A stretch of 14,407 nucleotides of DNA, taken from IMG/VR virus record IMGVR_UViG_2874915312_000003, positions 1 through 14,407 of that record; one strand, written 5' to 3'. Below the pieces are notes generated by a model. It had not been told where the DNA came from. It did not search any database and saw only the letters and a list, made by a program, of their open reading frames with translations. Position 1 is the stretch's first letter, and every line of letters starts with the position of its first letter. This document shows, piece after piece, positions 1 through 14,407 of this stretch. A program made the translations under genes and the position numbers. The DNA comes from a virus. Lineage: Duplodnaviria > Heunggongvirae > Uroviricota > Caudoviricetes.

Positions 1-200
1 CACAACATCCGAGGACAGCATCGTCCGCCAGCCTACAGAAGTCCGGAAAGCCATGGAAGGTCGTTGGGAGGAGGTACGAATTCTATCATGCAAAAAATAC
101 GTAAAATCGATAACGCCTAGAAATCATTCAATACTCGCACTATCGAAAGTTTACCAGCCAACCGCGGCACGTTCCTGCATACGACGTGCCGCAGCTTCTG

Positions 201-764
201 TTATTCCACGATAAAATTCCTAACCGAATTCAAATCCTTCAGACTATTCAGCTCTTCCTTCAGCTCCCGCTGACGGCGATAAATCTCATCGTTGCGATCG
301 ACCTGCGCCTGCACCATTGCTGCCGCCAGTTCTTCCAGTTCCGGCATCGACAGTTTCACCTGCTGATTATCGGCATCGCTCCACGCCATATGTGTTTGTG
401 CTGTGACAGATTTTGCCAGCATGACTACCGGGGACAGGCGGCCCAGTGAGTCGGGGCCAGCATTCCAGATACGACCGTTCCATTCAAACGTGAACGGCTT
501 CGCCTCCTGTTCTGTGCGCCATGCTTCAATTCCCTGACGTCTGGCCTCTCTGGCCGCTTCCAGCATTTCTGGTGTCACAGTGAATGGGGCTATCTCACCC
601 CATTTGCCGCTTTGCAGTTCCTGCCAGATTTGCTGACCCGTCGGAGCGACATCATCAGCGGTGGCTGTGTAGGGGACTGCCTGGTCCCTGTCGTCAAAAA
701 AAACGTCACAGTCTACTGCGCCACTTTCGGTATAACGGGGATTAATGATTTTTTTAATTTCCAC
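201..764 (-). CDS. Putative tail fibre assembly/chaperone-like protein (second tfa-like gene, directly 3' of stf)
   Basis: ORF 201..824 minus overlaps the stf stop by 50 nt. An in-frame GTG at 764 preceded by GAGGAA (6-nt spacer) is the likelier start. Assignment rests mainly on position after a tail fibre gene. Confidence 0.4.
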   Translation of the reverse strand: MEIKKIINPRYTESGAVDCDVFFDDRDQAVPYTATADDVAPTGQQIWQELQSGKWGEIAPFTVTPEMLEAAREARRQGIEAWRTEQEAKPFTFEWNGRIWNAGPDSLGRLSPVVMLAKSVTAQTHMAWSDADNQQVKLSMPELEELAAAMVQAQVDRNDEIYRRQRELKEELNSLKDLNSVRNFIVE

Positions 765-774
765 GGTGCATTCC

Positions 775-2043
775 TCACGATGTGCGAATAAAAAGCCCGG
801 GCATTGCGCCAGAGACATGAGCATCCGGCACCCCGGACAGGGCGCAATATGACCCTGGTAATGAATGCTCTGAACATCCCGTAATGAAAAATTGTGGGGA
901 TGCTATATACGTTCCGGTGGGAGTACTGGGCACTGAAATCCCCACCGGTCCCAGTCGTGAGCCTCTGTATGACTGCCCCCTGACAAGTCTGATGACTTTA
1001 TCACCGTCAGCTTCTCCCTGGTACGCAGCAATAATCAGCCCGCCAATGTCAGGGTCTCCCCATCTGTTGCGGACAGAGCTCGCCACGATTCTGTAAATAA
1101 TATCTTCTGTGGTTATATTTATTTTCACCCAGCCAGTCAGTCTGGATATGGGCCAATAGCAGTAGCGGGTGTGATAAATGGGGCCGTTAATGCCGTAAAA
1201 AGTAAGGGATTTGGCTCTGTACCGCGGTTCTGTTGTCTCAGGGCGTGCATCAGTCCACCGGATGCTGAGCACCCCTTCAAACCGTGTGTCGGGTATGATG
1301 ATGCCGTAGGGGCCAGCAACGGAATATTCACCTGGCAGCGCATTCCTTACCCAGGCCAGGAAATCACTCTTAGTGTCAAAACGGATAACATCTTCAGGCA
1401 GAAAAGCACACCCAAAGCCGAATGCGCCGGGTATCGCCAGACGGCCTTTTGTCCGGTCGTAAATGTCGCTCTGTGCTTCCATCGTGGCCGCACTTTTCAG
1501 CCCCAGATTATCCCGGGACTTCTGTTGTGCCTTTTCGCCTGCTGCTGCGATTTCAGACAGATGGTTAGCCGTTTTCAGGGTGCCGGTCAGCGCAGCATCA
1601 ATGTCATTTTTGGCCTGTTCTGCTGCGCGGGCATAACCTGCGGCTGCCGCCACATCCTGCGCCGTCTGCTGTGCGTTTCCGGCTGCGGCCCCGGCGCTCT
1701 GCTGCGCCTGCGCCACCATTTCCTCAAAGCGTTTGACGACATCCGGTTTCAGGTCGCCCTCATCAGGAGCAATCAGAAAGTCATTCAGCGTGCCGGGCTT
1801 TGAGTCCTCATATACAGCAATGTCGCCAACGTTGTACTCGTTGCGCCAGTCCTGTTTCAGATACACACCATATTTTCCAGTCCGCGCATGGAAACAGTAT
1901 TCACCATCGTTTCCTGTCATCACATCAGCAACAGTGTTCATCACCACTTCCGGGGTGTTTACCCGGGATTTCAGAATAATATGGTATCCGGACATGGGGA
2001 TACCTGCGCCATCAGTCAGCGCACCTGATATCACTACAGACAT
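775..2043 (-). CDS. stf: Side tail fibre protein, lambda Stf-like N-terminal domain
   Basis: 422-aa ORF. N-terminus MSVVISGALTDGAGIP...IAVYEDSKPGTLNDFL follows the lambda Stf N-terminal pattern (MAVKISGVLKDG...ITVYEDSQPGTLNDFL) as remembered. Followed by a tfa-like gene. Confidence 0.7.
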   Translation of the reverse strand: MSVVISGALTDGAGIPMSGYHIILKSRVNTPEVVMNTVADVMTGNDGEYCFHARTGKYGVYLKQDWRNEYNVGDIAVYEDSKPGTLNDFLIAPDEGDLKPDVVKRFEEMVAQAQQSAGAAAGNAQQTAQDVAAAAGYARAAEQAKNDIDAALTGTLKTANHLSEIAAAGEKAQQKSRDNLGLKSAATMEAQSDIYDRTKGRLAIPGAFGFGCAFLPEDVIRFDTKSDFLAWVRNALPGEYSVAGPYGIIIPDTRFEGVLSIRWTDARPETTEPRYRAKSLTFYGINGPIYHTRYCYWPISRLTGWVKINITTEDIIYRIVASSVRNRWGDPDIGGLIIAAYQGEADGDKVIRLVRGQSYRGSRLGPVGISVPSTPTGTYIASPQFFITGCSEHSLPGSYCALSGVPDAHVSGAMPGLFIRTS

Positions 2044-2066
2044 TGTTTTTCTCGCGATAAATTAAA

Positions 2067-2612
2067 TCAGGAAGAACCTTCCGGAGAGGCGGGCCATTCA
2101 ATGGCGTTGTATGAGGATTTATCAGTGATGGTGCTGAAATCCATCGCCTGCAGCGATTTCGCGTAAATACGACAGGCTTTCAGCTTTTCTTTATCTTCGT
2201 CGCTGATTAACCCCAGCAGCAGGTCTTCTTCCCATTCCCCTGTCCGGGCACTGACCTGAGCCAGAAGGGCATCACGCTCATCTTCCGCTTTGAGTCTGTA
2301 GTCAAAGACAAATTCATCATTGCGGTAAAACCAGTAACCCGGCGCGGTAATCCGTCGGTTAGCGGTAATATCAGGAACTTCAATAACACTGGCATTGCGT
2401 GGCTCGATGCCTGTCACATCCTTACCGACCCACACCACGCGACCATCTCCGGTGTAAGCTATTTTTATTGTGTCGCTGGCGAAATTCTTCAGCTCTTCAT
2501 ACCAGTTTTTTCCGTCTTCTGAAAAAAGCCAGGTGACCGAATATCGTTTTGTCATCTGATATTGTTCTGCTGTTTTCGGATTACCCGCAGTAATATTTTT
2601 TAAATGCAACAT
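2067..2612 (-). CDS. tfa: Tail fibre assembly protein Tfa
   Basis: 181-aa ORF. N-terminus MLHLKNITAGNPKTAEQYQMTK...WLFSEDGKNWYEE and C-terminal ...IEWP match E. coli prophage TfaQ/TfaR/lambda Tfa as remembered. ATG lies 2 nt after the stop of the upstream fibre fragment. Confidence 0.75.
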   Translation of the reverse strand: MLHLKNITAGNPKTAEQYQMTKRYSVTWLFSEDGKNWYEELKNFASDTIKIAYTGDGRVVWVGKDVTGIEPRNASVIEVPDITANRRITAPGYWFYRNDEFVFDYRLKAEDERDALLAQVSARTGEWEEDLLLGLISDEDKEKLKACRIYAKSLQAMDFSTITDKSSYNAIEWPASPEGSS

Positions 2613-2614
2613 TG

Positions 2615-3265
2615 TTAAATACTCGCTACGTTATACCAGGTGCCATTAATCAGTTTTTGCAGTGGTCGGTAATACACACCGTCAACGTTATCCGCTGAGT
2701 TACGGCCGGGGCTGTAATACATTTCATGGCCATACCGTACATCCTGTACCCCCTCTGTTCGATATTTATAGCGGGCATCGAAGTTTCCGTAATTTAACGG
2801 AATTACCTGTCCGTTAACAGTGAACACTATGCTGTTATCCGGGTTTCTCTGGCTGAAAAAATGCCAGCCTGAATCATCGCCAAGCTCTGCAACAACAGGC
2901 CTGGATGGATTACCCCACAAATAAAACGCTGCATTTTTCGTGGAGTTGTTGGCGCTGGATAACGTGAATTTTCTGACAGTTCCGGCCTGAATATTCTTAA
3001 AAGCAATAGCCACTCCATTCTGAAAGCGGAATACACGCTGACTATTAGCATAAACATCCAGAATACCGTCTCCATTCTGTTTAAATCCGGTGTCATTATC
3101 ACCAAGAACAATTGAATTCCCCCCCAGGGCGTTCTGAACGCCGATACCCAGCGCACCATTGACCTGCGAACCACCGCCAACAGACACTTTATGCGACATG
3201 GATATTTCACCCGTCCGCAAATTAATGGTGAACGGGCGCAGGGGACCAATATCGCCATTATTCAC
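2615..3265 (-). pseudogene. Tail fibre C-terminal (receptor-binding) domain remnant; 5' portion missing
   Basis: 216-codon ORF with Gly-rich tip-like sequence (HKVSVGGGSQVNGALGIGV...), immediately followed by tfa. Begins with GTG overlapping the holin stop and has no fibre N-terminal domain. First in-frame ATG is at 3199. Confidence 0.45.
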
Positions 3266-3473
3266 CTCTCGCAGCCTTACGCTTATCTTCTCTTATTTTG
3301 AAATACAGATTCGTCAGATAAGTCAGAAGCCCCAGAAGCAGACTTCCCAGCACACCAATCGCAGCCCACTGTGATGGACTGACCTGATCCAACCACTGCA
3401 AAAACCAGTAGCCGGCACTGCCGGCGGCGGTGCCGTAGGCAATGCCCGTTGAAATTTTGTCCATGGATTTCAT
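3258..3473 (-). CDS. Holin, lambdoid prophage EssD/EssQ type (71 aa)
   Basis: MKSMDK...[32 protein letters not shown] closely matches K-12 prophage holin EssD as remembered. SD GGAGGTGA sits upstream of the ATG. Hydrophobic core with a charged C-tail. Confidence 0.7.
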
Positions 3474-3633
3474 AGCCTCACCTCCGCAAATAACGGATGG
3501 CGTAGTTTTACACTGAGAAATGAAAGGGATTTGAAAAGAAAAAAACGCAAAAGCGGGCGAAACGATATATACAGTAAGGAAAGCACTCTATCCAACAAAC
3601 CACCCACAGTTAATCGGAATAAAAGCAGAGTGC

Positions 3634-3706
3634 TTATGAATGATCGCACGCCCGAAGGTTAGTATTTCTGCACAGCAATTTTGCAAAAAAAGGCGATCAT
3701 TCATAA
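3634..3706. repeat. Perfect 14-bp inverted repeat, TTATGAATGATCGC (3634-3647) / GCGATCATTCATAA (3693-3706), 45-nt spacer
   Basis: Read directly from sequence, in the tRNA-holin intergenic region. Confidence 0.8.
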
Positions 3707-3713
3707 CTTAAAC

Positions 3714-3759
3714 GTCTTTCAGTCACTCCGGGATTTCCCATCATCGCAGACTGAAAGAC
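3714..3759. repeat. Perfect 11-bp inverted repeat, GTCTTTCAGTC (3714-3724) / GACTGAAAGAC (3749-3759), 24-nt spacer
   Basis: Read directly from sequence, 7 nt beyond the 3' end of tRNA-Gly on the transcribed strand. Confidence 0.8.
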
Positions 3760-3765
3760 TCTGAC

Positions 3766-3840
<75 letters not shown>

Positions 3841-3843
3841 ATA

Positions 3844-3919
<76 letters not shown>

Positions 3920-3921
3920 GC

Positions 3922-3998
3922 TGGCCCACCACCGAGGACTCGAACCTCGCACCGTCAACTTAGAAGGTTGATGCTCTATCCGGATGAGCTAGTGGTGG
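3922..3998 (-). tRNA. tRNA-Arg (anticodon UCU, reads AGA)
   Basis: Reverse complement CCACCACTAGCTCATCCGGATAGAGCATCAACCTTCTAAGTTGACGGTGCGAGGTTCGAGTCCTCGGTGGTGGGCCA. Perfect 7-bp acceptor stem, anticodon loop CTTCTAA, T-loop TTCGAGT. Confidence 0.75.
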
Positions 3999-3999
3999 T

Positions 4000-4076
4000 T
4001 GGTGGCCCTTGCTGGACTTGAACCAGCGACCTGGCGATTATGAGTCGCTCGCTCTGACCAACTGAGCTAAAGGGCC
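4000..4076 (-). tRNA. tRNA with CAU anticodon, ileX/ileY-like (Ile2/lysidine type more likely than Met)
   Basis: Reverse complement GGCCCTTTAGCTCAGTTGGTCAGAGCGAGCGACTCATAATCGCCAGGTCGCTGGTTCAAGTCCAGCAAGGGCCACCA. Resembles E. coli tRNA-Ile2 as remembered. Ile versus Met identity cannot be settled by eye. Confidence 0.7.
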
Positions 4077-4085
4077 GGAGGCAGA

Positions 4086-4114
4086 ATAATAACCATATGT
4101 CATCACATCTGCAA
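4086..4114 (-). promoter_or_regulatory. Candidate sigma70 promoter for the tRNA cluster (-35 TTGCAG, 17-bp spacer, -10 TATTAT)
   Basis: Minus-strand hexamers at 4114..4109 and 4091..4086. The -10 ends about 10 nt upstream of the tRNA 5' end at 4076. Confidence 0.35.
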
Positions 4115-4160
4115 ACTCATCTGACCACCAGCGCGTTTAACGCCCTGTGCCATTTTTCAG

Positions 4161-4188
4161 GCACAAAAAAACCCGCATAAAGCGGGTT
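4161..4188 (-). terminator. Rho-independent terminator (minus strand)
   Basis: Minus strand reads AACCCGC-TTTAT-GCGGGTT followed by TTTTTTTGTG. Lies about 100 nt downstream of the antirepressor stop. Confidence 0.55.
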
Positions 4189-4284
4189 CTTTCAAGTGTC
4201 CATGTCTGCTATTCGCCTCGCGATACAGCTTTGCGGAGCTTACCGGAATTGAAGCAGTTTATGTGCAAAAATGCAAGAACTTTT

Positions 4285-4794
4285 TTAAAGCTGCATCAAC
4301 CTTTCCACCAGTTTATCTCTGCGAACAACAAACCAACCATTGGCTCTCGCCAGTTCCAGCCATGACTCAAGGGAAATAACAATATCATCATCCCGTAACT
4401 GAATTGTGGAAACAGTGACACCGCCTCTCTGATAACAGAGAACTCGCGTGTCGTAACTTTTCTGGCATGAAACTGGCGTTGACGGATCCTTTTGACTGAA
4501 ATAGCAGTCTTCCAGTTTTTCGAACACATCCCACGCCTGATCGGTTTCGAGCATTTTGGCGTGGCGTGCTGCGCCTCGTTCTGTCCAGAGGATGAGGGAG
4601 CGGGCTTTGGGTGAAACTGGATTTTGTGAGTAGTTTAAAGCGACCCGCAATTCTTTAAGGTCATTACCAACAACTTTGAAAAAGTGTTTCCCTTCAACGA
4701 AGCGTACTTTGTTCTCATGATGATTCTGGCGAATACGCACCGGCTCAGTGCCGTAAAGCTGCGCCAAAAGTTCGGTGGTAATAACAGGAATCTG
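4285..4794 (-). pseudogene. ORF6N-domain phage antirepressor-like protein, 3' part (interrupted by IS600)
   Basis: Translation ...IPVITTELLAQLYGTEPVRIRQNHHENKVRFVEGKHFFKVVGNDLKELR...SPKARSLILWTERGAARHAKMLETDQAWDVFEKLEDCYF matches the ORF6N consensus as remembered. The first 47 codons of track ORF 4285..4932 are read out of IS600 and are artefactual. Confidence 0.65.
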
Positions 4795-4837
4795 TGAGGT
4801 GTACTGGCAATAGCGGACACTACCATTTGTTCTTTTT

Positions 4838-5656
4838 TTAAGCAGCCATCTGATGATATTTTTCCCTGAAGGCTGCCAGGGAGATATTCCCCAGACGAGA
4901 GTGACGACGCTGACGATTGTAGAAAATCTCAATGTATTCCCGTATTACTGAGATGGCTTCATCCCGGTTATTAAAACGATAGTGGCTCAGGCTCTCATTT
5001 TTCAGCGTTCCCCAGAAGCTTTCCATCGGAGCGTTGTCGTAACAGTTACCTTTACGCGACATTGATGTTTTCAGACCAAACTGCTCCTGTATGACCCGGT
5101 AATCGTATGCGCAGTACTGTGAACCTCGATCAGAGTGGTGGATTAGCCCGGCAGGTGGGCGCTGGCTCCTGAGCGCCATAAACAGGGCTTTACCTGTCAG
5201 CTCTTTTGTCATGCGCTCTCCCATGGCGTAGCCGACAATTTCGCACGTATAAACATCTTTGATGCCAGCGAGGTACAACCATCCCTCCTGTGTGGCAACA
5301 TACGTCAGGTCCGCCACCCAGACCTGATTTGGTGCTGTAGGAGCGAACGTCTGGTTCAGCAGATTTGGCGCAACTGGCAGATTGTGGTTCGGGTTCGTAG
5401 TCGCTCTGAACTTGCGTTTCTGCTTACAGCGTAGCCTTAGCTCCTTACAAAGACGTGCCAGTCGGTCACGACCAACGATGATGCCATTCTCTGCCAGCTC
5501 CGTCTGGAGCCGCCGGGTTCCATATGTTTCGCGAGTGCGGATATGTGCCACCTTAATCTCCAGTTTTAGCCGCTCATCACTTTGTTTTCTGTCTGAGGGT
5601 TCATGCTGTACCCAGTTGTAATAACCGCTCCTGGATACACCAAATACCTGACACAT
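4838..5656 (-). CDS. IS600 orfB (DDE transposase catalytic part, expressed as OrfAB by -1 frameshift)
   Basis: 272-aa ORF with IS3-family integrase-core motifs (WVADLTYV...HSDRGSQY...NAPMESFWGTLK). Confidence 0.8.
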   Translation of the reverse strand: MCQVFGVSRSGYYNWVQHEPSDRKQSDERLKLEIKVAHIRTRETYGTRRLQTELAENGIIVGRDRLARLCKELRLRCKQKRKFRATTNPNHNLPVAPNLLNQTFAPTAPNQVWVADLTYVATQEGWLYLAGIKDVYTCEIVGYAMGERMTKELTGKALFMALRSQRPPAGLIHHSDRGSQYCAYDYRVIQEQFGLKTSMSRKGNCYDNAPMESFWGTLKNESLSHYRFNNRDEAISVIREYIEIFYNRQRRHSRLGNISLAAFREKYHQMAA

Positions 5657-5691
5657 CGCTTCAATGGGAAATTGTTGTCGCCATTGTTCGA

Positions 5692-5994
5692 TTAACGCGT
5701 ATTTTTCAGCGACTCCTGTGCAAAATACGCTGTTGCTTTTTTTAATATATCTCGCTCAAGGCGAGCTTCATTTAACGCCTTACGCAGTTGCAGAATTTCA
5801 GATTCCAGTTCAGCCACCGTGCGGGAACCAGGAGTACCGAGCCCTTTTCTGGCGGCGGTAACCCATTGTCCTAAAGTGCCTTCAGGAAGAGATAATCGGG
5901 AAGCGCCTTCACTGATCGAAAGTTGATTTTCAAGAACCGTTCTGACAGCTTCGGCTTTGAACTCTTTAGAGTAACGTTGGGTTTTTCTGCTCAT
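5692..5994 (-). CDS. IS600 orfA (helix-turn-helix / leucine-zipper transposase N-terminal part)
   Basis: 100-aa ORF starting 64 nt from the IS end, with a coiled-coil ELESEILQLRKALNEARLERDILKKA typical of IS3-family OrfA. Confidence 0.8.
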   Translation of the reverse strand: MSRKTQRYSKEFKAEAVRTVLENQLSISEGASRLSLPEGTLGQWVTAARKGLGTPGSRTVAELESEILQLRKALNEARLERDILKKATAYFAQESLKNTR

Positions 5995-6058
5995 TATTAG
6001 CTCCTTCTGATGCCATTCTATTTCAGGAAGGAGTGTCCGTTAAACTCAGGCTACCTCA

Positions 6059-6109
6059 CTGGTTATGGGTGATCGGGGAGAGAGTTTCAACAGAGATTTG
6101 AGTGGTCAT
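6059..6109 (-). pseudogene. ORF6N antirepressor-like gene, 5' part (MTTQISVETLSPITHNQ)
   Basis: Frame continues exactly across the IS600 insertion once the IS and one CTG copy are removed (...THNQ|IPVITT...). The ATG at 6109 has GGAG 9 nt upstream. Confidence 0.5.
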
Positions 6110-6272
6110 AACGATAACTCCGTACATTTGGAAATTATCGCCACCGACGACGCCAATCGAACTGGTGGCGAACTGTGCAGGGTTGGCGTAACCGGGTACG
6201 GAAACCGGCGAGCCTTTCGGCTCCCCCACACAGCCCGCCATAAATCGCGAATGTGACTGTGCAAACGATATG

Positions 6273-6294
6273 AAAAAAGACGCGGGCGCGTCTC
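6273..6294 (-). terminator. Candidate tR'-like intrinsic terminator
   Basis: Minus strand reads GACGC-GCCC-GCGTC followed by TTTTTT, about 55-75 nt downstream of the candidate late promoter. Confidence 0.4.
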
Positions 6295-6355
6295 ATATCG
6301 CTCCGTAAACATCCGGGACGCCAATCCCGACGCCAGATTTTGCTGGCGCGTGAGG

Positions 6356-6385
6356 AATATAGCCCCGGATAACAGATTGAGTCAA
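6356..6385 (-). promoter_or_regulatory. Candidate late promoter pR' (-35 TTGACT, 18-bp spacer, -10 TATATT)
   Basis: The -35 hexamer at 6385..6380 overlaps the Q stop codon (TGA at 6384..6382). The -10 is at 6361..6356. Lambdoid pR' sits immediately after Q. Confidence 0.5.
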
Positions 6386-6936
6386 CAAACGGTTTTTAGA
6401 TCCCCGGAAGAGAATGCATCACGCATCGGTAGATAGAGCATATATTCAGCAAGATTTAGCCATACATCTACCCGACTGCAGCACGTCCGGAAACACCACT
6501 CAGGGTGTGCGTCATTCAGCAATTCAGCCATTTTACGCTTAGTCATCCCCCGCCCTTCATACCGTTGCCGGAGGACACTAATCAATCCAGGATGCTCTGC
6601 CAGCACCTCACTTATGACTCTATCAATACATAACGCCTCTGCATCAGTACAATGCGCCAGCCAGGTCTTTTGCTTGCCATTGATCATCTCTCGCAAAAAC
6701 GCTTCCAGCTCAGGTTTCTCTATTCCCGCTTTTTTCATCCTGCGCAGGGCTTCATTGACGGCTGTTTTCGTCAATTTTTTGGATGCCAGCAACTGGTTAA
6801 ACATATTTCCCGCCTTACCGCCGCCAATATACGACCAGCGCCCCCACATGCGCAGTTTTCCCTGAATCCAGACACTTTCCAGCGTGGTGAGACGAAGGTG
6901 TTCCCCGCTTTTGCCTGTATTTGTTGGGTAAATCAT
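6382..6936 (-). CDS. Late-gene antitermination protein Q (Phage_antitermQ-like)
   Basis: Start taken at the internal ATG 6936 (MIYPTNTGKSGEH...), which has SD AAGGAAGG and overlaps the upstream stop as ATGA. Motif LRMWGRWSYIGGG resembles the W-G-x-W segment of Q21/QuuD-type proteins as remembered. Candidate pR'/tR' lie immediately downstream. Confidence 0.6.
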   Translation of the reverse strand: MIYPTNTGKSGEHLRLTTLESVWIQGKLRMWGRWSYIGGGKAGNMFNQLLASKKLTKTAVNEALRRMKKAGIEKPELEAFLREMINGKQKTWLAHCTDAEALCIDRVISEVLAEHPGLISVLRQRYEGRGMTKRKMAELLNDAHPEWCFRTCCSRVDVWLNLAEYMLYLPMRDAFSSGDLKTVC

Positions 6937-7223
6937 AAATAACCTTCCTTTCTCCAGATTTCTTGTGTGCGAAAAACACCTTCTGCATGCATCAGGCGTA
7001 ATTCTTCTTTGGTGTAATCGCTGGTTTTTACCCGCCCGTCGATTAAATCGTGGCATGAGCTACAGGCAATCGCTGCCTGCATATCGTGTGGTTTTGTCGC
7101 TGTTCCGCACGTCCCCGCCAGCCTGTAATGCGCCAGCACAGAAGTTTCGGGATTGTGATTGCAGTAGCCAGGGATTCTGACGGTGCACATCTGCCCCCGC
7201 GCCGCTTTACGTAAATCCACCAT
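6933..7223 (-). CDS. Cys-rich nin-region protein (YbcO/DUF1364-like)
   Basis: 96-aa ORF with spaced Cys/His residues (CTVRIPGYCNH...CGTATKPHD...CSSCHD). Start overlaps the upstream stop (TAATG). Family name is from memory. Confidence 0.45.
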   Translation of the reverse strand: MVDLRKAARGQMCTVRIPGYCNHNPETSVLAHYRLAGTCGTATKPHDMQAAIACSSCHDLIDGRVKTSDYTKEELRLMHAEGVFRTQEIWRKEGYL

Positions 7224-7822
7224 TACGCAAACTCCAGTAACTGCGCGGCCACATTTTCGACTTCCTCCGGAGAGGAAAATTTACGGAACAGGATCCAGTT
7301 CCACAGCACATTCAGTACAGATTTATAAACCTGCTGAAACTCGGTTTCGTCCATGTTCGCAAATGCGATAGATTTTGCCCTGCGCCCACGACTACCATCA
7401 GGATAAATATGCTCGGTGTAAAATCCGGCCTGAATGGTTACCCACTCGCGGAAAGCGTCAAACGACTTTAGCAATGCCGTATCCCGGGTTCTGCATGTCG
7501 CAACTGTATTAAGGTATTGCTCTGCGGCATCACTCAGGGCTGGAGTGTGTTCCCGACCTACTGATTCGCACAGGTAATCAACGAAGCCTGATACCAGTTT
7601 TCGTTCGCGAGGCGTGATCGCCCCACCGACCGGAGTCCAGTAATCAAATCCCAGTTGCAGGAGTTTGAAAAAACGCTTGTGGAATGCGTAGTTACGCACA
7701 CGCTTAAAGTCTGCGTGTATCCACTCACCTATTTTGATTTGATGCAAAAAATCGCAACTCTCCGGCGTCGCCGGGAGAAGTAATCCGGAAGAGGTTTGTT
7801 TGACCAGTTGTATATGCGCCAT
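7223..7822 (-). CDS. Lambdoid nin-region protein (DUF1367-like), unknown function
   Basis: 199-aa ORF, translationally coupled to the next gene, located between the Rem-like gene and Q. Confidence 0.45.
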   Translation of the reverse strand: MAHIQLVKQTSSGLLLPATPESCDFLHQIKIGEWIHADFKRVRNYAFHKRFFKLLQLGFDYWTPVGGAITPRERKLVSGFVDYLCESVGREHTPALSDAAEQYLNTVATCRTRDTALLKSFDAFREWVTIQAGFYTEHIYPDGSRGRRAKSIAFANMDETEFQQVYKSVLNVLWNWILFRKFSSPEEVENVAAQLLEFA

Positions 7823-7955
7823 CGTAGTTCTCCGCTGGCGCAGTAGAATGGGTGTTCAGCCCGTTATGTAGTATACCAGAATTAATGCCAATACTAACAG
7901 GGTAATGCTGCCAACTTACTGATTTAGTGTATGATGGTGATTTTAAGGTGCTTGC

Positions 7956-8231
7956 GTGGCTTCCATTTCCATCAGATGTCCTTCCTGCTCCGCTACTGAA
8001 GGCGTGGTGCGTAACGGCAAAAGCACTGCCGGGCATCAGCGCTATCTCTGCTCTCATTGCCGTAAAACATGGCAACTACAGTTCACTTACACCGCCTCTC
8101 AGCCCGGTACGCACCAGAAAATCATTGATATGGCCATGAATGGCGTCGGATGTCGCGCCAGTGCACGCATTATGGGCGTTGGCCTCAACACGGTTTTACG
8201 TCACTTAAAAAACTCAGGCCGCAGTCGGTAA
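7956..8231 (+). CDS. insA: IS1 InsA
   Basis: [40 protein letters not shown]..., 91 aa. Confidence 0.9.
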
Positions 8232-8653
8232 CCTCGCGCATACAACCGGGCAGTGATGTGATTGTCTGCGCTGAAATGGACGAACATTGGGGCTACGTCG
8301 GTGCTAAATCACGTCAGCGCTGGCTGTTTTACGCGTATGACAGGATACGGAGGACGGTTGTGGCGCACGTCTTCGGTGAACGCACTCTGGCCACACTGGA
8401 GCGTCTTCTGAGCCTGCTGTCGGCCTTTGAGGTCGTGGTATGGATGACGGATGGCTGGCCGCTGTATGAATCACGCCTGAAGGGAAAGCTGCACGTTATC
8501 AGCAAGCGTTACACTCAGCGCATTGAGCGACATAATCTGAATCTGAGACAACATCTGGCAAGGCTGGGACGGAAGTCACTGTCGTTCTCAAAATCGGTGG
8601 AGCTGCATGACAAGGTCATCGGGCATTATCTGAACATAAAACACTATCAGTAA
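8150..8653 (+). CDS. insB: IS1 insB reading frame (expressed as InsAB' fusion by -1 frameshift at the A6C motif near 8207)
   Basis: 167-codon ORF overlapping the insA 3' end. TTAAAAAACTC slippery motif present. Confidence 0.85.
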
Positions 8654-8752
8654 GTTGGAGTCATTACCTACTAACAGGATGTTCTGACTCGCAATTCGGT
8701 AATGCTGCCAACTTACTGATTTAGTGTATGATGGTGATTTTAAGGTGCTTGC

Positions 8753-9028
8753 GTGGCTTCCATTTCCATCAGATGTCCTTCCTGCTCCGCTACTGAAGGC
8801 GTGGTGCGTAACGGCAAAAGCACTGCCGGACATCAGCGCTATCTCTGCTCTCATTGCCGTAAAACATGGCAACTACAGTTCACTTACACCGCCTCTCAGC
8901 CCGGTACGCACCAGAAAATCATTGATATGGCCATGAATGGCGTCGGATGTCGCGCCAGTGCACGCATTATGGGCGTTGGCCTCAACAGGGTTTTACGTCA
9001 CTTAAAAAACTCAGGCCGCAGTCGGTAA
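8753..9028 (+). CDS. insA: IS1 InsA (copy 2; T->R substitution relative to copies 1 and 3)
   Basis: GLNRVLRHL versus GLNTVLRHL in the other copies. Confidence 0.9.
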
Positions 9029-9450
9029 CCTCGCGCATACAACCGGGCAGTGATGTGATTGTCTGCGCTGAAATGGACGAACATTGGGGCTACGTCGGTG
9101 CTAAATCACGTCAGCGCTGGCTGTTTTACGCGTATGACAGGATACGGAGGACGGTTGTGGCGCACGTCTTCGGTGAACGCACTCTGGCCACACTGGAGCG
9201 TCTTCTGAGCCTGCTGTCGGCCTTTGAGGTCGTGGTATGGATGACGGATGGCTGTCCGCTGTATGAATCACGCCTGAAGGGAAAGCTGCACGTTATCAGC
9301 AAGCGTTACACTCAGCGCATTGAGCGACATAATCTGAATCTGAGACAACATCTGGCAAGGCTGGGACGGAAGTCACTGTCGTTCTCAAAATCGGTGGAGC
9401 TGCATGACAAGGTCATCGGGCATTATCTGAACATAAAACACTATCAGTAA
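8947..9450 (+). CDS. insB: IS1 insB frame (copy 2; W->C substitution, DGCPLYES versus DGWPLYES)
   Basis: Direct comparison of the three copies within the window. Confidence 0.85.
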
Positions 9451-9698
9451 GTTGGAGTCATTACCCGCAATTCATCCAGCAGTTTATCATTTCCCATAAT
9501 GTCACTTACCCTCATCGGTAAAAAAATTGCCTTTCGACCATTACGATACATTATTGATTTTGGGGTTTCAGGGAAGTAATCCATTTCGACTATAACTGAC
9601 AGGTCATCACGACGTATGACTGCGTATTTGCTACTAAATAGTTTCTTTATTTTTTCCACGATGCCTCCAGGTTTATAAGTACAAACGGTTATATCCAC
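9444..9698 (-). CDS. Rem-like small prophage protein; last 5 native codons replaced by 6 IS1-derived codons
   Basis: GTG start at 9698. Removing both IS1 copies and one copy of each duplication restores an 83-codon ORF ending ...LLDELRVRTSC, with its stop inside the copy-1 target duplication. Position (upstream of Q and nin proteins, downstream of hokD) mirrors rem in K-12 Qin. Identity to Rem is from memory. Confidence 0.5.
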
Positions 9699-9842
9699 AT
9701 AGAGACAAAAATATTAATCTGAAAAACATTTATTTCACGCCGTATATTTGATTGTTTAATGTGCAAGTACAATGACTTTTATTTTTTGTTGTGTATATAA
9801 TCAAATATATGGTTATTTTTCACCCTGCGTATTCAGCACGCA

Positions 9843-9867
9843 ACAAAAAACCCGCCGAAGCGGGTTT
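9843..9867 (-). terminator. Rho-independent terminator downstream of hok
   Basis: Minus strand reads AAACCCGC-TTCG-GCGGGTTT followed by TTTTGTTG, 68 nt after the hok stop. Confidence 0.7.
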
Positions 9868-9934
9868 AGTGCGGGTGCGTTGAGGATGCCTGACACATGA
9901 GAGGTGGCGAGGGATTTCTCCCCCGCCTGGTCTC

Positions 9935-10090
9935 TTACTCCTCAGGTTCGTAAGCTGTGAAGACAGCGACCTCCGTCTGGCCGGTTCGGATTCGTACCTC
10001 GCAGAGGTCTTTCCTCGTTACCAGTGCCGTCACTATGACGGTTAAACAGATGACGATCAGGGCGATTAACATCGCCTTTTGCTGCTTCAT
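9935..10090 (-). CDS. hokD: Hok/Gef-family type I toxin, HokD (RelF)-like
   Basis: 51-aa MKQQKAMLIALIVICLTVIVTALVTRKDLCEVRIRTGQTEVAVFTAYEPEE matches K-12 HokD as remembered. SD AAGGAG is 8 nt upstream. Track ORF 9935..10147 adds an in-frame 19-codon upstream extension (MSHKCRLASYVPKGKEKQA). Confidence 0.8.
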   Translation of the reverse strand: MKQQKAMLIALIVICLTVIVTALVTRKDLCEVRIRTGQTEVAVFTAYEPEE

Positions 10091-10431
10091 AGCCTGCTTC
10101 TCCTTGCCTTTCGGCACGTAAGAGGCTAACCTACATTTGTGAGACATAGATTGGGCCTCAGATTAATGTTAAGCGTCTTGCAGGACGCGTAATGTTAACT
10201 GGGGCTTTTCTCTGTCTGCCTTACAGTGGCATGCCCGAGGCAGACAGCCTCAAGCACCCGCAGCAATCTTACCGATACCGATAAGAAAACGCTATTTTTT
10301 ATTGCCAGCACCTTCTATCCAGGCTAATTTATCTGCGTCAGAACGGCGCAATGCGCTCGCCTGAGATACGTTTACTTGCCATGGTAACAACAGGTAACGG
10401 CAATTGCTGTTTCTGTTTTGTTTCCTTCAAA

Positions 10432-10456
10432 AACCCCGGACCATCAATCCGGGGTT
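10432..10456. terminator. Terminator-like hairpin AACCCCGGA-CCATCAA-TCCGGGGTT with T-runs on both sides
   Basis: Plus strand is followed by TTTTTGTTTGTT (stronger); minus strand by TTTTTGAAGG. Sits directly 3' of the 27-aa peptide ORF. Confidence 0.5.
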
Positions 10457-10464
10457 TTTGTTTG

Positions 10465-10548
10465 TTAACCCCAACGGCAAATCGAATACACCACCATCGC
10501 CATCGCCATCGCAATTCCTACCGTGGTGAATGCCTCAGGCCAGGTCAT
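10465..10548 (-). CDS. Candidate 27-aa hydrophobic peptide (MTWPEAFTTVGIAMAMAMVVYSICRWG)
   Basis: Not in the ORF track (below size cutoff). ATG at 10548 has SD GGAGGTG (5-nt spacer) and overlaps the stop of the upstream frame as ATGA. TAA at 10467-10465 is followed at once by the hairpin. Contains three tandem GCGATG codon pairs (plus-strand CATCGC x3 at 10495-10512). Confidence 0.35.
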   Translation of the reverse strand: MTWPEAFTTVGIAMAMAMVVYSICRWG

Positions 10549-10906
10549 TGATTCACCTCCTGCGGTGGTTCCGGTAGCGGCATCCAGTGAGTTGAGCTCT
10601 CTACTTCAACGCCGTCTTTGTCCACAAAAGCCATCTTATTCCCGCCACGAGTGGGGCAAAAAACCTTATCCCAGGAACCGGGGAATACATTCCCGAGATC
10701 ATCGAGAAGAATCACATCGCAATATTCAGCAGGAACTGCATCACTACAGCTTATCCAGCTAGAGTTACCGGAGAGTTGCCAGCCTTACGCATGGCCATTT
10801 CCACGATTTCAACCATATCTCCTGGTGGAATTTTACAAAGTTGCCCAATACATTTCTGCTGCCTGGCATATTCGAGAATGTGCTCCAATTTGGTTCGATT
10901 AATCAT
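10545..10906 (-). pseudogene. Gene split into two frames: 51-aa N-terminal ORF (10906..10751) plus 79-codon open frame (10784..10545), probable frameshift
   Basis: Frame A MINRTKLEHILEYARQQKCIGQLCKIPPGDMVEIVEMAMRKAGNSPVTLAG has SD AAGGGAG and overlaps the upstream stop (TAATG). Frame B ...SCSDAVPAEYCDVILLDDLGNVFPGSWDKVFCPTRGGNKMAFVDKDGVEVESSTHWMPLPEPPQEVNQ has no plausible start of its own. The frames overlap at 10751-10784 around a direct repeat AACTCT x2. Confidence 0.35.
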
Positions 10907-11571
10907 TATTTATCTCCCTTAAGCATGGCAGCGCGGCAGGCGTTCCAGCCATCAACATAATCAAACGTATTACTATCGTTTGGCCCGATTTCATCCGGCA
11001 CTATCGGCTCTGGTTGGATAGTGACGTTGGCAAAGGCAGCACGCAAACCGGTTTTAATTTCTTCGATTTCATCAGAGCCAAGCGATGAATCTGACAGTGC
11101 GTGATGGAATGCGTAAGCCATGTCGTCGTTTACTGCAACCGGTACTGCCGGCGCTGCGTAAAGCGGTGTTATATCTGCCCGAAAATCACATGCTTTATGC
11201 AGTCGTACCCAACGCTCAACTTCCGCTTTGTCAAAATATATAGCAGTGAACGTATTAGATTCCTGGTCAACTTGAGTAAACGTCACCTTCCACGCTACAG
11301 CTACGGCTTTCCATCCATCAGGTTGTCGCATTCGCGGGGCAGCATAAAGCTCATGCATTCCATCAGGCAGCGAGTGACCCACATACTCACCGAACCCGTC
11401 AATACACATGCCCCCATCTTCAACAATGCATTCCGCTACAGGCTCTGCTTCCAGTGATGCCAGAGCGATAAGCGCCAGTTCACGAATTTCACCGCCGTCT
11501 ATATCGTCAATATCATCGCGGCCAGAAATGTTAGCCAGCCATTGCAGTCGCTCTTTGGTAATAGTGGTCAT
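10906..11571 (-). CDS. Acidic 221-aa hypothetical prophage protein
   Basis: Long ORF with start overlapping the HNH stop (ATGA). Internal repeat of LYAAP motifs (ELYAAPRMRQPDGWK and ITPLYAAPAVPVA). Confidence 0.5.
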   Translation of the reverse strand: MTTITKERLQWLANISGRDDIDDIDGGEIRELALIALASLEAEPVAECIVEDGGMCIDGFGEYVGHSLPDGMHELYAAPRMRQPDGWKAVAVAWKVTFTQVDQESNTFTAIYFDKAEVERWVRLHKACDFRADITPLYAAPAVPVAVNDDMAYAFHHALSDSSLGSDEIEEIKTGLRAAFANVTIQPEPIVPDEIGPNDSNTFDYVDGWNACRAAMLKGDK

Positions 11572-11933
11572 GCCGTAGCCCCTTCTTGATATTTTTCAAA
11601 CCAGAACACAACCGGGTCAGATTTCATTTCAACCAATCCCATACGAACCAGCGCTTTGCCTTTCCCGGACGCAAGGAATTCACGACGACCATCACTGATA
11701 ATTCGTCGATAATCTTCCAGGCTACTGCAATGCTTGTGCAGATTGCATGGGTGGCATTCTGGTACCATGTTGGATATATCGTCACGTTCCTGGTGAAGCA
11801 TATTTCCATCAAAACGAATGACCGGTTTTACATGGTCTGCATGCCACTTTTCGCCAAGTTCGCAGCCGCAATAAGCGCAGCGACCACCGAACTTAATGCG
11901 CAGTTCTGCACGTTGTTTTTTCGTCAGTGCCAT
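11568..11933 (-). CDS. HNH endonuclease
   Basis: CAYCG...WHADHVKP...NMVPECHPCNLHKH is an HNH / Zn-binding motif. Start taken at ATG 11933 (MALTKKQ...) with SD AAGGAAAG, rather than the track start 12023. Confidence 0.65.
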   Translation of the reverse strand: MALTKKQRAELRIKFGGRCAYCGCELGEKWHADHVKPVIRFDGNMLHQERDDISNMVPECHPCNLHKHCSSLEDYRRIISDGRREFLASGKGKALVRMGLVEMKSDPVVFWFEKYQEGATA

Positions 11934-12189
11934 ATCAGCTTTCCTTATACGGATTAATTTTATTGTGCAGTGTGTTGAATGACGCCCATACCACGTCGTT
12001 ATACAATTCAATAACTGGCTCAATTATTTTTCCGATTATCCAGACAAAAATTAGCGGGGATATCGGTGTCATCAACACGATAAACAGAATGAGAAACAGG
12101 AATTCTGTTGTTCTACTCTTTCGCGGATATTTTTGGTAATGCTGCCAACTTACTGATTTAGTGTATGATGGTGATTTTAAGGTGCTTGC

Positions 12190-12465
12190 GTGGCTTCCAT
12201 TTCCATCAGATGTCCTTCCTGCTCCGCTACTGAAGGCGTGGTGCGTAACGGCAAAAGCACTGCCGGACATCAGCGCTATCTCTGCTCTCATTGCCGTAAA
12301 ACATGGCAACTACAGTTCACTTACACCGCCTCTCAGCCCGGTACGCACCAGAAAATCATTGATATGGCCATGAATGGCGTCGGATGTCGCGCCAGTGCAC
12401 GCATTATGGGCGTTGGCCTCAACACGGTTTTACGTCACTTAAAAAACTCAGGCCGCAGTCGGTAA
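12190..12465 (+). CDS. insA: IS1 InsA (copy 3)
   Basis: Protein identical to copy 1 InsA. Confidence 0.9.
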
Positions 12466-12887
12466 CCTCGCGCATACAACCGGGCAGTGATGTGATTGTC
12501 TGCGCTGAAATGGACGAACATTGGGGCTACGTCGGTGCTAAATCACGTCAGCGCTGGCTGTTTTACGCGTATGACAGGATACGGAGGACGGTTGTGGCGC
12601 ACGTCTTCGGTGAACGCACTCTGGCCACACTGGAGCGTCTTCTGAGCCTGCTGTCGGCCTTTGAGGTCGTGGTATGGATGACGGATGGCTGGCCGCTGTA
12701 TGAATCACGCCTGAAGGGAAAGCTGCACGTTATCAGCAAGCGTTACACTCAGCGCATTGAGCGACATAATCTGAATCTGAGACAACATCTGGCAAGGCTG
12801 GGACGGAAGTCACTGTCGTTCTCAAAATCGGTGGAGCTGCATGACAAGGTCATCGGGCATTATCTGAACATAAAACACTATCAGTAA
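12384..12887 (+). CDS. insB: IS1 insB frame (copy 3)
   Basis: Protein identical to copy 1. Confidence 0.85.
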
Positions 12888-13022
12888 GTTGGAGTCATTA
12901 CCGATATTTTTTTCTAAATAATGTAACCATTCATTACCGCCCTTTCGGGCGGTCTCCTGATGATTTGAGGGTGCAGAAATCCCTCCGGTTAGAGATTAAA
13001 TTTTTAACAGTGCTAAATTTAA

Positions 13023-13248
13023 TTATTCAGTTCTGGATTTTGTCGCCCTGCGTATCCGCGCTTTCGCATTACGCTCAATCTGTATCAGCTTTTCTATATT
13101 TCTCCGCCTTTCCTGTTCCTCCTGGCGCAATAGCCTTACATCATCTGCCAGTCTGGTTTCTCTTTTTGCCACAGAGAGCATCCAGTCAAACGGCTCCACA
13201 ACCGCACCGCAGATTTTACAGCAGACCTGACGCTCTTTTTCGTCAACC
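13023..13248 (-). pseudogene. 3' fragment of an unidentified phage gene truncated by IS911 (...CCKICGAVVEPFDWMLSVAKRETRLADDVRLLRQEEQERRRNIEKLIQIERNAKARIRRATKSRTE)
   Basis: Minus-strand frame is open from the IS911 boundary to a TAA at 13025..13023. Charged, coiled-coil-like tail. No start codon inside the fragment. Confidence 0.25.
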
Positions 13249-13256
13249 TGAAGTGG

Positions 13257-14407
<1,151 letters not shown>

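Follow-up and report, generated by a model that had tools for sequence, protein, structure and literature searches.

An HNH nuclease gene and an overlapping acidic mosaic gene in a Shigella-type prophage remnant: probably neighbouring cassettes of a packed nin operon

Our subject is a pair of overlapping genes in a 14,407-nucleotide (nt) stretch of DNA from a Caudoviricetes record (IMG/VR IMGVR_UViG_2874915312_000003, positions 1 to 14,407; hereafter the window). One encodes a 121-amino-acid (aa) HNH endonuclease (11568-11933, minus strand) and the other a 221-aa acidic protein, here called p221 (10906-11571, minus strand). An earlier reading of the DNA, the original prediction, had treated the two as one tightly coupled unit and had suggested that such a nuclease and its partner could serve in packaging or in defence or anti-defence. 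We consider it probable that they are two independent cassettes in a tightly packed nin (delayed-early) operon, a case of ordinary lambdoid mosaicism and not a dedicated two-gene system. Of 5426 complete E. coli genomes, 385 have the whole HNH gene (95-99.5% identical) and two have the whole p221 gene, which is not the pattern of an obligate two-gene module. Together with these genome counts, the distance to the terminase genes, the PADLOC search and the separate occurrence of the two kinds of gene leave the dedicated packaging or defence module unsupported.

The arrangement of the genes was as predicted. Both open reading frames (ORFs) lie on the minus strand and begin with ATG, with TGA ending the HNH ORF and TAA ending p221. 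They overlap by ATGA (plus-strand tcat, 11568-11571), and p221 overlaps the split downstream DUF551 ORF by TAATG. A gap of 1 nt separates the HNH gene from the DUF4014 gene upstream, a Shine-Dalgarno-like purine run can be read before each start in the junction sequences, and the coding strand of the block showed no promoter- or terminator-like site, sigma-70-like promoters included. The placement in a nin region also stood, because in intact relatives the block has replication genes on one side and the DUF1367, YbcO and DUF1133 genes on the other. The tight translational packing behind the claim of a coupled unit is real, but it is not peculiar to the HNH/p221 pair, as at nearly every Enterobacterales locus that was examined the next gene, whatever it may be, has its start overlapping the HNH stop. 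A stop built in this way would allow the HNH gene to insert and leave downstream translation unblocked.

The HNH protein (isoelectric point (pI) 8.6) falls within the HNH family by profile search (Pfam HNH PF01844, 23.3 bits with a cut-off of 21.4; PHROG 2118, 9e-54), and the expected residues can be read from its translation: a CxxC at C19/C22, H31-A-D33-H34, N55, a second CxxC at C60/C63, and H66/H68. Its C-terminal tail, PVVFWFEKYQEG, is native to the family, with the motif PVVFWFE(K/Q)YQEG conserved across genera, and no solved structure is close to it in sequence. Relatives at 30-76% identity are scattered over T1-like, RB49-like, Vibrio, Caulobacter, Acinetobacter and Streptococcus phages, and lambdoid phages and Drexlerviridae have relatives too. 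Among the free-standing HNHs of phages the protein is unremarkable. With the homing-type HNHs of PHROG 2118 it shares the CxxC...HxDH...N...CxxC...H motif and a sporadic presence in unrelated phages, and it differs from them in that, in the alleles examined that lack it, its place is taken by other genes and is not an empty site.

The HNH gene forms a discrete cassette some 390 bp long. Its DNA is 99.5% identical to the copy of E. coli FDAARGOS_944, which encodes WP_001229296.1, a protein whose annotated copies sit in four different contexts within E. coli. These comprise a CPS-53-like element beside yfdP-yfdQ-yfdR, where the gene lies between the yfdR-side genes and a DUF551 gene, and lambdoid nin regions in which the neighbours differ and DUF4014 is present or absent upstream. 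The homology of these other contexts to the window is bordered about 13 nt before the start and 17-22 nt past the stop. The ratio of nonsynonymous to synonymous substitution rates (dN/dS) is 0.06-0.07 against three E. coli copies, and the protein is therefore maintained by purifying selection. These properties could be accounted for by a small free-standing ββα-metal nuclease that moves between phage contexts like a homing-type or selfish nuclease, and homing is plausible as far as the sequence goes. Some 300 further E. coli genomes keep just the last ~50 nt of the gene. In E. coli 300709 (L006, 2501-2668) a 55-aa ORF consists of the N-terminal module of p221's family (MTTITKERIELF...SLEAEPV) followed by the last 13 HNH residues (VFWFEKYQEGATA), and it appears to be an HNH 'ghost' that arose by replacement of the nuclease gene.

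The second gene encodes a strongly acidic protein, as had been claimed (pI 4.39; 39 D+E and 18 K+R). The profile search proposed for it gave no Pfam match at E <= 0.1 and no NCBIfam family. PADLOC returned nothing meaningful for p221, only a 12-bit JetA match, and single-sequence and profile searches of the PDB reached E values of ~0.06-0.85 only, which is noise. The original prediction had allowed that clear homology to a well-characterised nin-region protein would count against it, and none was found; the relatives of p221 are all uncharacterised. Lambda NinI (orf221), a Ser/Thr phosphatase, has the same length as p221 and comes from the same genome region. This candidate was rejected, as p221 has no metallophosphatase or other Pfam match, and the shared length is a coincidence. 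A NinI-like phosphatase gene does lie further downstream of the HNH block in HK225. The protein has been on record as WP_000208061.1, an unannotated 'hypothetical protein'.

The alignments indicate that p221 is a composite of four or more cassettes (aa 1-46, 47-79, 88-136 and 137-221). Seven PHROGs match it, each over a different part, and translated searches of phage genomes (tblastn) return it in pieces only (aa 148-218, 88-138 or 44-81). A search of 5.8 billion proteins gave 3284 matches with few full-length relatives among them; most have one or two segments in common with p221 at 75-96% identity and are different elsewhere. At E <= 1e-3 the number of matching clusters (50% identity) is 872. 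The boundaries of the BLAST segments pile up at aa 46, 79, 88-92, 137-145, 193-195 and 217-221. Breakpoints and module combinations were counted on 138 cluster representatives at 50% identity, among which about 20 combinations occur. One match, P0144 (2728 aa; phmmer E = 6e-30 over 23 weak stretches), consists of tandem repeats and has no family motifs, and it was discarded as a repeat-driven false positive.

Module M1 (aa 1-46; 11434..11571, minus strand, as for all modules here) is the N-terminal two-helix module MTTITKERL...IALASLEAEPVA, matching PHROG 3323 and 660. It is the common N-terminus of the mosaic family, whose genes have the conserved start ATGACNACNATNACNAAAGA, and 14 ends of high-scoring segment pairs (HSPs) fall at aa 46. 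M2 (aa 47-79; 11335..11433) ends in the first LYAAP (aa 75-79, 11335-11349) with 15 HSP ends at aa 79, and it is also found, at 87% DNA identity, in the gene upstream of the HNH gene in UTI89. M3 (aa 88-136; 11164..11310) is the β-β-α-β domain VAWKVTFTQ...FRADITP and matches PHROG 17148; HSP starts cluster at aa 88-92, and the tblastn matches in Stx, Dewey-like and Erwinia jumbo phages are confined to aa 88-138. The second LYAAP joint (aa 137-141, 11149-11163) and M4 (aa 142-221) together span 10909..11163 and match PHROG 12449 and 5117, with 26 HSP starts at aa 137. M4 is a three-helix region made up of VNDDMAYAFHHALSD..., the VVPDE linker and the GWNACRAAML helix, and it is separable into 4a and 4b. 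Matches annotated as 'EaA protein' in P22-like phages, other phages and phage-plasmids are confined to aa 148-218. The dN/dS values of 0.10 for M1 against UTI89 (L002) and 0.11 for M4 point to purifying selection on these modules.

The modules are marked at their ends by short peptide joints. LYAAP does occur twice in p221 as had been noticed, at the end of M2 and at the end of M3, but the internal duplication proposed around it did not hold: the best half-versus-half alignment scores 35 against 26 +/- 5 for shuffles (maximum 54), and the LYAAP regions are not in that alignment. By comparison with relatives, the two copies are better taken as separate occurrences of a motif that closes modules throughout the family. 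The pattern LY[ATSRV][ATSVP]P occurs 79 times in 120 relatives where 0.2 would be expected, and LY(A/T)xP caps modules that are unlike each other (DITPLYAAP, GGVPLYATP, GTHQLYTAP, RVIPLYRVP, KGIPLYTSP). The two copies in p221 use different codons (CTT TAT GCT GCC CCG and CTT TAC GCA GCG CCG), and what is conserved is therefore the peptide. DNA identity at the joints as a substrate for recombination was also considered and is unsupported for the two joints inspected, where the LYAAP copies differ at 3 of 5 wobble positions. The two 'PVA' joints in p221 have 6 of 9 nt in common. Other conserved joints are over-represented as well, namely EPV(A), with which the N-terminal module closes, VVPDE, and WNACRAAML, which comes ahead of either a further module or the stop; in the same 120 relatives EPV[AGS] is found in 103, an LYxxP-like joint in 64 and AC.AAML in 101, with ~0-2 expected by shuffling. 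With its M1-type helix module ending in SLEAEPV, its LY(A/T)xP caps and its C-terminal WNACRAAML helix, p221 belongs to what we call the mosaic 'MTTITKE...EPVA / PLYAAP / WNACRAAML' group, an operational definition from this analysis.

The joints also invite a stronger reading, in which they (EPVA, PLYAAP, VVPDE, WNACRAAML and GNSPVTPDGWIS) form a combinatorial cassette system, tandem arrays of family genes in enterobacterial prophages keep swapping small binding modules in frame, and the HNH nuclease targets the conserved 5' end or a junction of these genes, or drives the shuffling by break-induced recombination. If true, the locus would be one of nuclease-assisted diversification of host-interaction or anti-defence proteins. 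We think this very unlikely. The recurrent HNH cassette at the 5' edge of family genes does offer a testable link between a selfish nuclease and the nin recombination hot spot.

Structure prediction, which had been proposed as a check, gave a modular picture. The AlphaFold2 (AF2) model built with 139 diverse representatives has a mean predicted local distance difference test score (pLDDT) of 67.3 and a predicted template modelling score (pTM) of 0.35; a model built with 30 close relatives (pLDDT 46.7) was unusable. In the former, M1 forms two helices (6-15 and 26-40; pLDDT ~59-71), M3 a β-β-α-β unit (pLDDT 73-77) and M4 three helices (pLDDT 78-89), while M2 has a pLDDT below 50. LYAAP forms the last β-strand of its module and is followed by a proline-rich linker. 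A fold search with the model gave no significant match. As modelled, p221 looks like a string of small binding-type modules without a catalytic signature.

These findings place WP_000208061.1 in a mosaic accessory group associated with Ea22 and DUF551, as an addition to this kind of protein that lies outside the Ead_Ea22 and DUF551 Pfam families. Ea22 and DUF551 proteins have been described as mosaic, acidic and portable-domain in nature (PMC10834534). All of M1, M2, M3 and M4 occur in proteins with a PF04448 or PF13935 domain, that is, in DUF551 and Ead/Ea22-like proteins such as CPS-53 YfdS and lambda Ea22, and like p221 these are acidic, mosaic products of early-operon accessory regions. 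Unlike Ea22, p221 has no Ead_Ea22 (PF13935) coiled-coil signature, and its gene lies in the nin (pR) and not in the exo-xis (pL) region. The DUF551 domain (PF04448), a small C-terminal domain ending in WMPLPEPP, is absent from p221 and is found in the separate next gene. Among 139 module-sharing representatives the fusion partners are DUF551 in 36, Ead_Ea22 in 7, a dATP/dGTP pyrophosphohydrolase in 2, and DUF3850 and Lar in 1 each; the rest have no Pfam domain. The 'EaA protein' records of P22-like and other phages contain the M4 three-helix module at 87-90% identity to p221, some of them with M3, but they correspond to single modules only; P22's own EaA is not among the matches, and the name is functionally uninformative. 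In one further relative, P0127 (255 aa), a PPAPVVPD linker connects the M4 modules to a zinc ribbon of the Lar type (CPFCGG...CTECG), whose terminal AWNSRAAM resembles the GWNACRAAML helix closing M4.

What such a protein does can be approached by analogy. In the explanation that we favour, p221 would be a non-enzymatic, acidic, multi-module member of a mosaic group from which the variable parts of DUF551, Ead/Ea22-like and 'EaA' proteins are also drawn, and its cassettes, small and independently folding, would be exchanged in frame at the joints EPVA, PLYAAP, VVPDE and WNACRAAML. Most likely its activity would lie in the binding of host or phage macromolecules by these cassettes, as an adaptor or modulator of the sort reported for Ea22, rather than in catalysis. 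Literature searches on DUF551, Ea22-like, EaA and DUF4014 brought up no functional study of the modules beyond the Ea22 structure paper. For a very large uncharacterised family, the module map with its peptide joints could guide domain-wise functional screens.

A more specific role would be that of an anti-defence or host-takeover effector, for instance an acidic DNA mimic or decoy, with the shuffling of modules as the mark of an arms race and the HNH nuclease irrelevant to its function. The acidity of p221 fits this, as do its early-operon accessory region, the combinatorial diversity of its family, the fusion of some relatives to Lar (restriction alleviation) or to a dATP/dGTP pyrophosphohydrolase, and the influence of Ea22-type relatives on the lysis/lysogeny decision (PMC10834534). 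However, p221 is similar to no characterised anti-defence protein in sequence and has no structural match, selection on its modules is purifying and not diversifying at the sequence level, and its charge is spread over modules and linkers with no evident DNA-like surface. We regard such a role as fairly unlikely.

If any two genes of the block form a unit, p221 and the DUF551 gene that follows it are better supported than the HNH gene and p221. The 264-aa relative in UTI89 has M1, M4, a spacer module and DUF551 all in a single polypeptide, and the two coupled genes may reproduce this one-chain architecture, their equivalence to the single-chain relatives being our inference. RefSeq has a partial DUF551 pseudogene 'missing N-terminus' after the HNH gene in UTI89 (L002, 1710-2504) and in FDAARGOS_1303 (L005, 2057-2851). 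At that place we find an uninterrupted 264-aa ORF with an ATGA overlap, and the pseudogene call is probably an annotation artefact.

The question of whether the HNH gene and p221 belong together was addressed through their neighbourhoods. The exact p221 protein, with records from Shigella flexneri, S. sonnei and a small number of E. coli, is present in 167 blocks of the assembly collection; the 24 blocks with the longest contigs were read, giving eight places. In all eight its gene is directly after the HNH gene and before the DUF551 gene, and in seven DUF4014 is upstream. These constant neighbours are not independent evidence, because the exact protein always sits in one prophage lineage and common descent accounts for them. 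In a wider scan with one genome per species, a family gene follows the HNH gene in 10 of 12 Enterobacterales loci, so that the conservation of neighbourhood looked for is partly there, but the inner modules of these genes differ and family genes without an HNH gene are common. Several of the loci also have an Ea22-like or family gene before the HNH gene. In UTI89 (L002, 2868-3224) and in L004 (2868-3275) this upstream gene is itself of the mosaic family (M1-M2-...-GWNDCREAMLQG), and the HNH gene therefore stands inside a tandem array of family genes.

One way to read the association is that the HNH and the family protein are a functional pair, in which the acidic protein regulates the nuclease, inhibits it in the manner of an immunity (Im) protein, or targets it by way of the N-terminal helical module, with the ATGA overlap ensuring co-translation. 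The conserved ATGA coupling speaks for a pair, as does the opposite charge of the two proteins (pI 4.4 and 8.6) and the presence of a family gene after the HNH gene both in the 10 of 12 loci and in every E. coli context sampled. Against this, the proteins that follow the HNH in E. coli (114, 221, 264 or 328 aa) are alike only in the generic type of their N-terminal module, and an identical ATGA overlap joins the HNH gene to downstream genes that are unrelated. In HK225 the DUF4014 gene sits between the HNH and the family gene. No family gene is beside the 76%-identical HNH copy of a T1-like phage, or beside the copies of Serratia, of Yersinia or of any of the non-Enterobacterales relatives, and the T1-like, RB49-like, Vibrio, Acinetobacter and Pseudomonas HNH relatives, among others, are without such a neighbour as well. 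Family genes also far outnumber HNH genes, and p221 modules occur without an HNH gene in nin regions beside Ea22-like genes, in a P22-like prophage, where they lie in the pL ea region near erf/abc-type genes, and on a phage-plasmid. A functional pair thus seems unlikely to us. As with colicin DNases and their immunity proteins, a basic HNH nuclease is followed here by a translationally coupled acidic protein, but the HNH and p221 genes show no obligate co-occurrence, p221 has no similarity to Im proteins, and the downstream protein varies.

Our preferred explanation of two independent cassettes has its own difficulties. One is the association itself: the 10 of 12 loci with a family gene right after the HNH gene include HNHs that are only 47-50% identical, and chance is a weak explanation for this. 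We assume that the position of the HNH gene at the 5' edge of mosaic-gene arrays, or inside them, comes from nin synteny, from a preference for the insertion site, or from both, which would account for the non-random neighbourhood as well as a functional link would. The HNH-less allele examined, that of E. coli 300709, holds other ORFs and the 3' remnant of the HNH gene and not an empty site. The structure prediction for p221 is only moderately confident, with M2 poorly predicted. Because the HNH gene is a mobile cassette in its own right, it would be wrong to list the pair as a new nuclease-partner or defence module. The finding as a whole is of small importance, with side results of modest general value.

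The other roles that could be given to the nuclease were compared with known systems. HK97 gp74 is similar in size to the window HNH (121 aa). Both are small single-domain HNH proteins of lambdoid phages, but the window HNH is not beside terminase or portal genes and it also occurs in the CPS-53-like context. An assignment as a gp74-type packaging HNH was rejected: in the intact prophage of E. coli FDAARGOS_944 (L001) the HNH gene (11076-11441) and the terminase (390-2490) are ~8.6 kb apart, with the Q-like gene, tRNAs and lysis genes between them. Membership in NinG/Rap (PF05766) was rejected as well, with a score of 18.7 bits against a cut-off of 25.4 (E = 0.0017) that covers the HNH-like core only. 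That the nuclease works with terminase in packaging, or in recombination like NinG/Rap, would be a considerable surprise. The weak NinG match and the nin-region location can be cited for it; the distance from terminase, the sub-threshold NinG score, the presence in just 385 of the 5426 genomes and the CPS-53-like context with no packaging genes nearby stand on the other side. HNH defence systems such as Septu (PtuAB) were set aside, the best match in PADLOC being PtuB at 27 bits, at the level of the HNH domain, with no ATPase nearby, and so was the retron HNH of NCBIfam (19.1 against a cut-off of 52).

Whether the block is expressed in this particular genome is a separate matter. The host prophage is a decayed Rac-like lambdoid remnant, riddled with insertion sequences (IS), in a Shigella-type chromosome; between positions 4906 and 14407 the window is 100% identical to CP026803.1. 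The replication genes and most morphogenesis genes (head, tail) have been lost, and there are five IS copies, three IS1 and two of the IS3 family. It is quite possible, although we incline slightly to the other side, that the block is here an unexpressed relic, cut off by IS1 from the early promoter, with its ORFs intact only through the recency of the decay. The IS1 that interrupts DUF4014 immediately upstream, the 4-bp deletion in the DUF551 gene, the lost genes, the five IS copies and the lack of a sigma-70-like promoter on the coding strand would agree with this. On the other hand neither ORF is disrupted, their identity to the E. coli copy is 99.5-99.8%, and outward transcription from IS1 is possible. 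A relic of this kind concerns expression in this genome and not the identity of the genes, and it is compatible with the explanation that we favour.

In the intact relatives the gene order runs from cI/cro-like helix-turn-helix (HTH) genes through YdaT, DUF1376, an IstB-like ATPase, DUF977, small genes and DUF4014 to the HNH gene, p221, DUF551, hok, DUF1367, YbcO, DUF1133 (a Q-like antiterminator), tRNAs and the holin. In the window the 3' part of the DUF4014 gene is at 11935..12134 (minus strand; Pfam DUF4014, 1.5e-23) and its 5' end at ~12903-12930, with an IS1 (12135-12902) in between; the window matches an intact locus (L016) on both flanks of this element, for which a 9-bp target duplication was inferred. 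The DUF551 gene (10545..10906, minus strand; Pfam DUF551, 3e-11 on the 3' fragment) is now a pseudogene. Set against its intact 121-aa counterpart in E. coli FDAARGOS_944 (L001), it has a 4-bp deletion near 10762 and one substitution, and its fragments are ORFs of 51 and 56 aa.

The three IS1 copies (7901-8668, 8698-9465 and 12135-12902) were found as repeats and are 99-100% identical, the first two being spaced 29 bp apart. The two IS3-family elements (4795-6058 and 13249-14407) carry orfA/orfB with HTH_Tnp_1 and rve domains. CP026803 contains another copy of the first at 99.7% identity, and the second extends past the end of the window. Directly downstream of the DUF551 pseudogene is an intact hok/gef toxin ORF (9935-10259, minus strand; Pfam 3e-23) accompanied by its region for the sok antisense RNA (Rfam RF01794, 118 bits). 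A palindrome with a perfect 13-bp stem (10428-10460; CAAAAACCCCGGACC...GGTCCGGGGTTTTTG-like) lies between hok/sok and the DUF551 gene and looks like a bidirectional terminator. An 84-aa ORF (9444-9698, minus strand) between hok and the IS1 pair matches PHROG 1813 (listed as function unknown) at 4e-32, and its start region adjoins the IS1 end at 9465. Further along are a P21-type holin gene (3258-3473, minus strand), then a 216-aa ORF without a Pfam match and then tail-fibre assembly genes (2615-3473). The homology to the intact prophage ends near 3271, and this region looks like a deletion joint that took out the lysis, head and tail genes.

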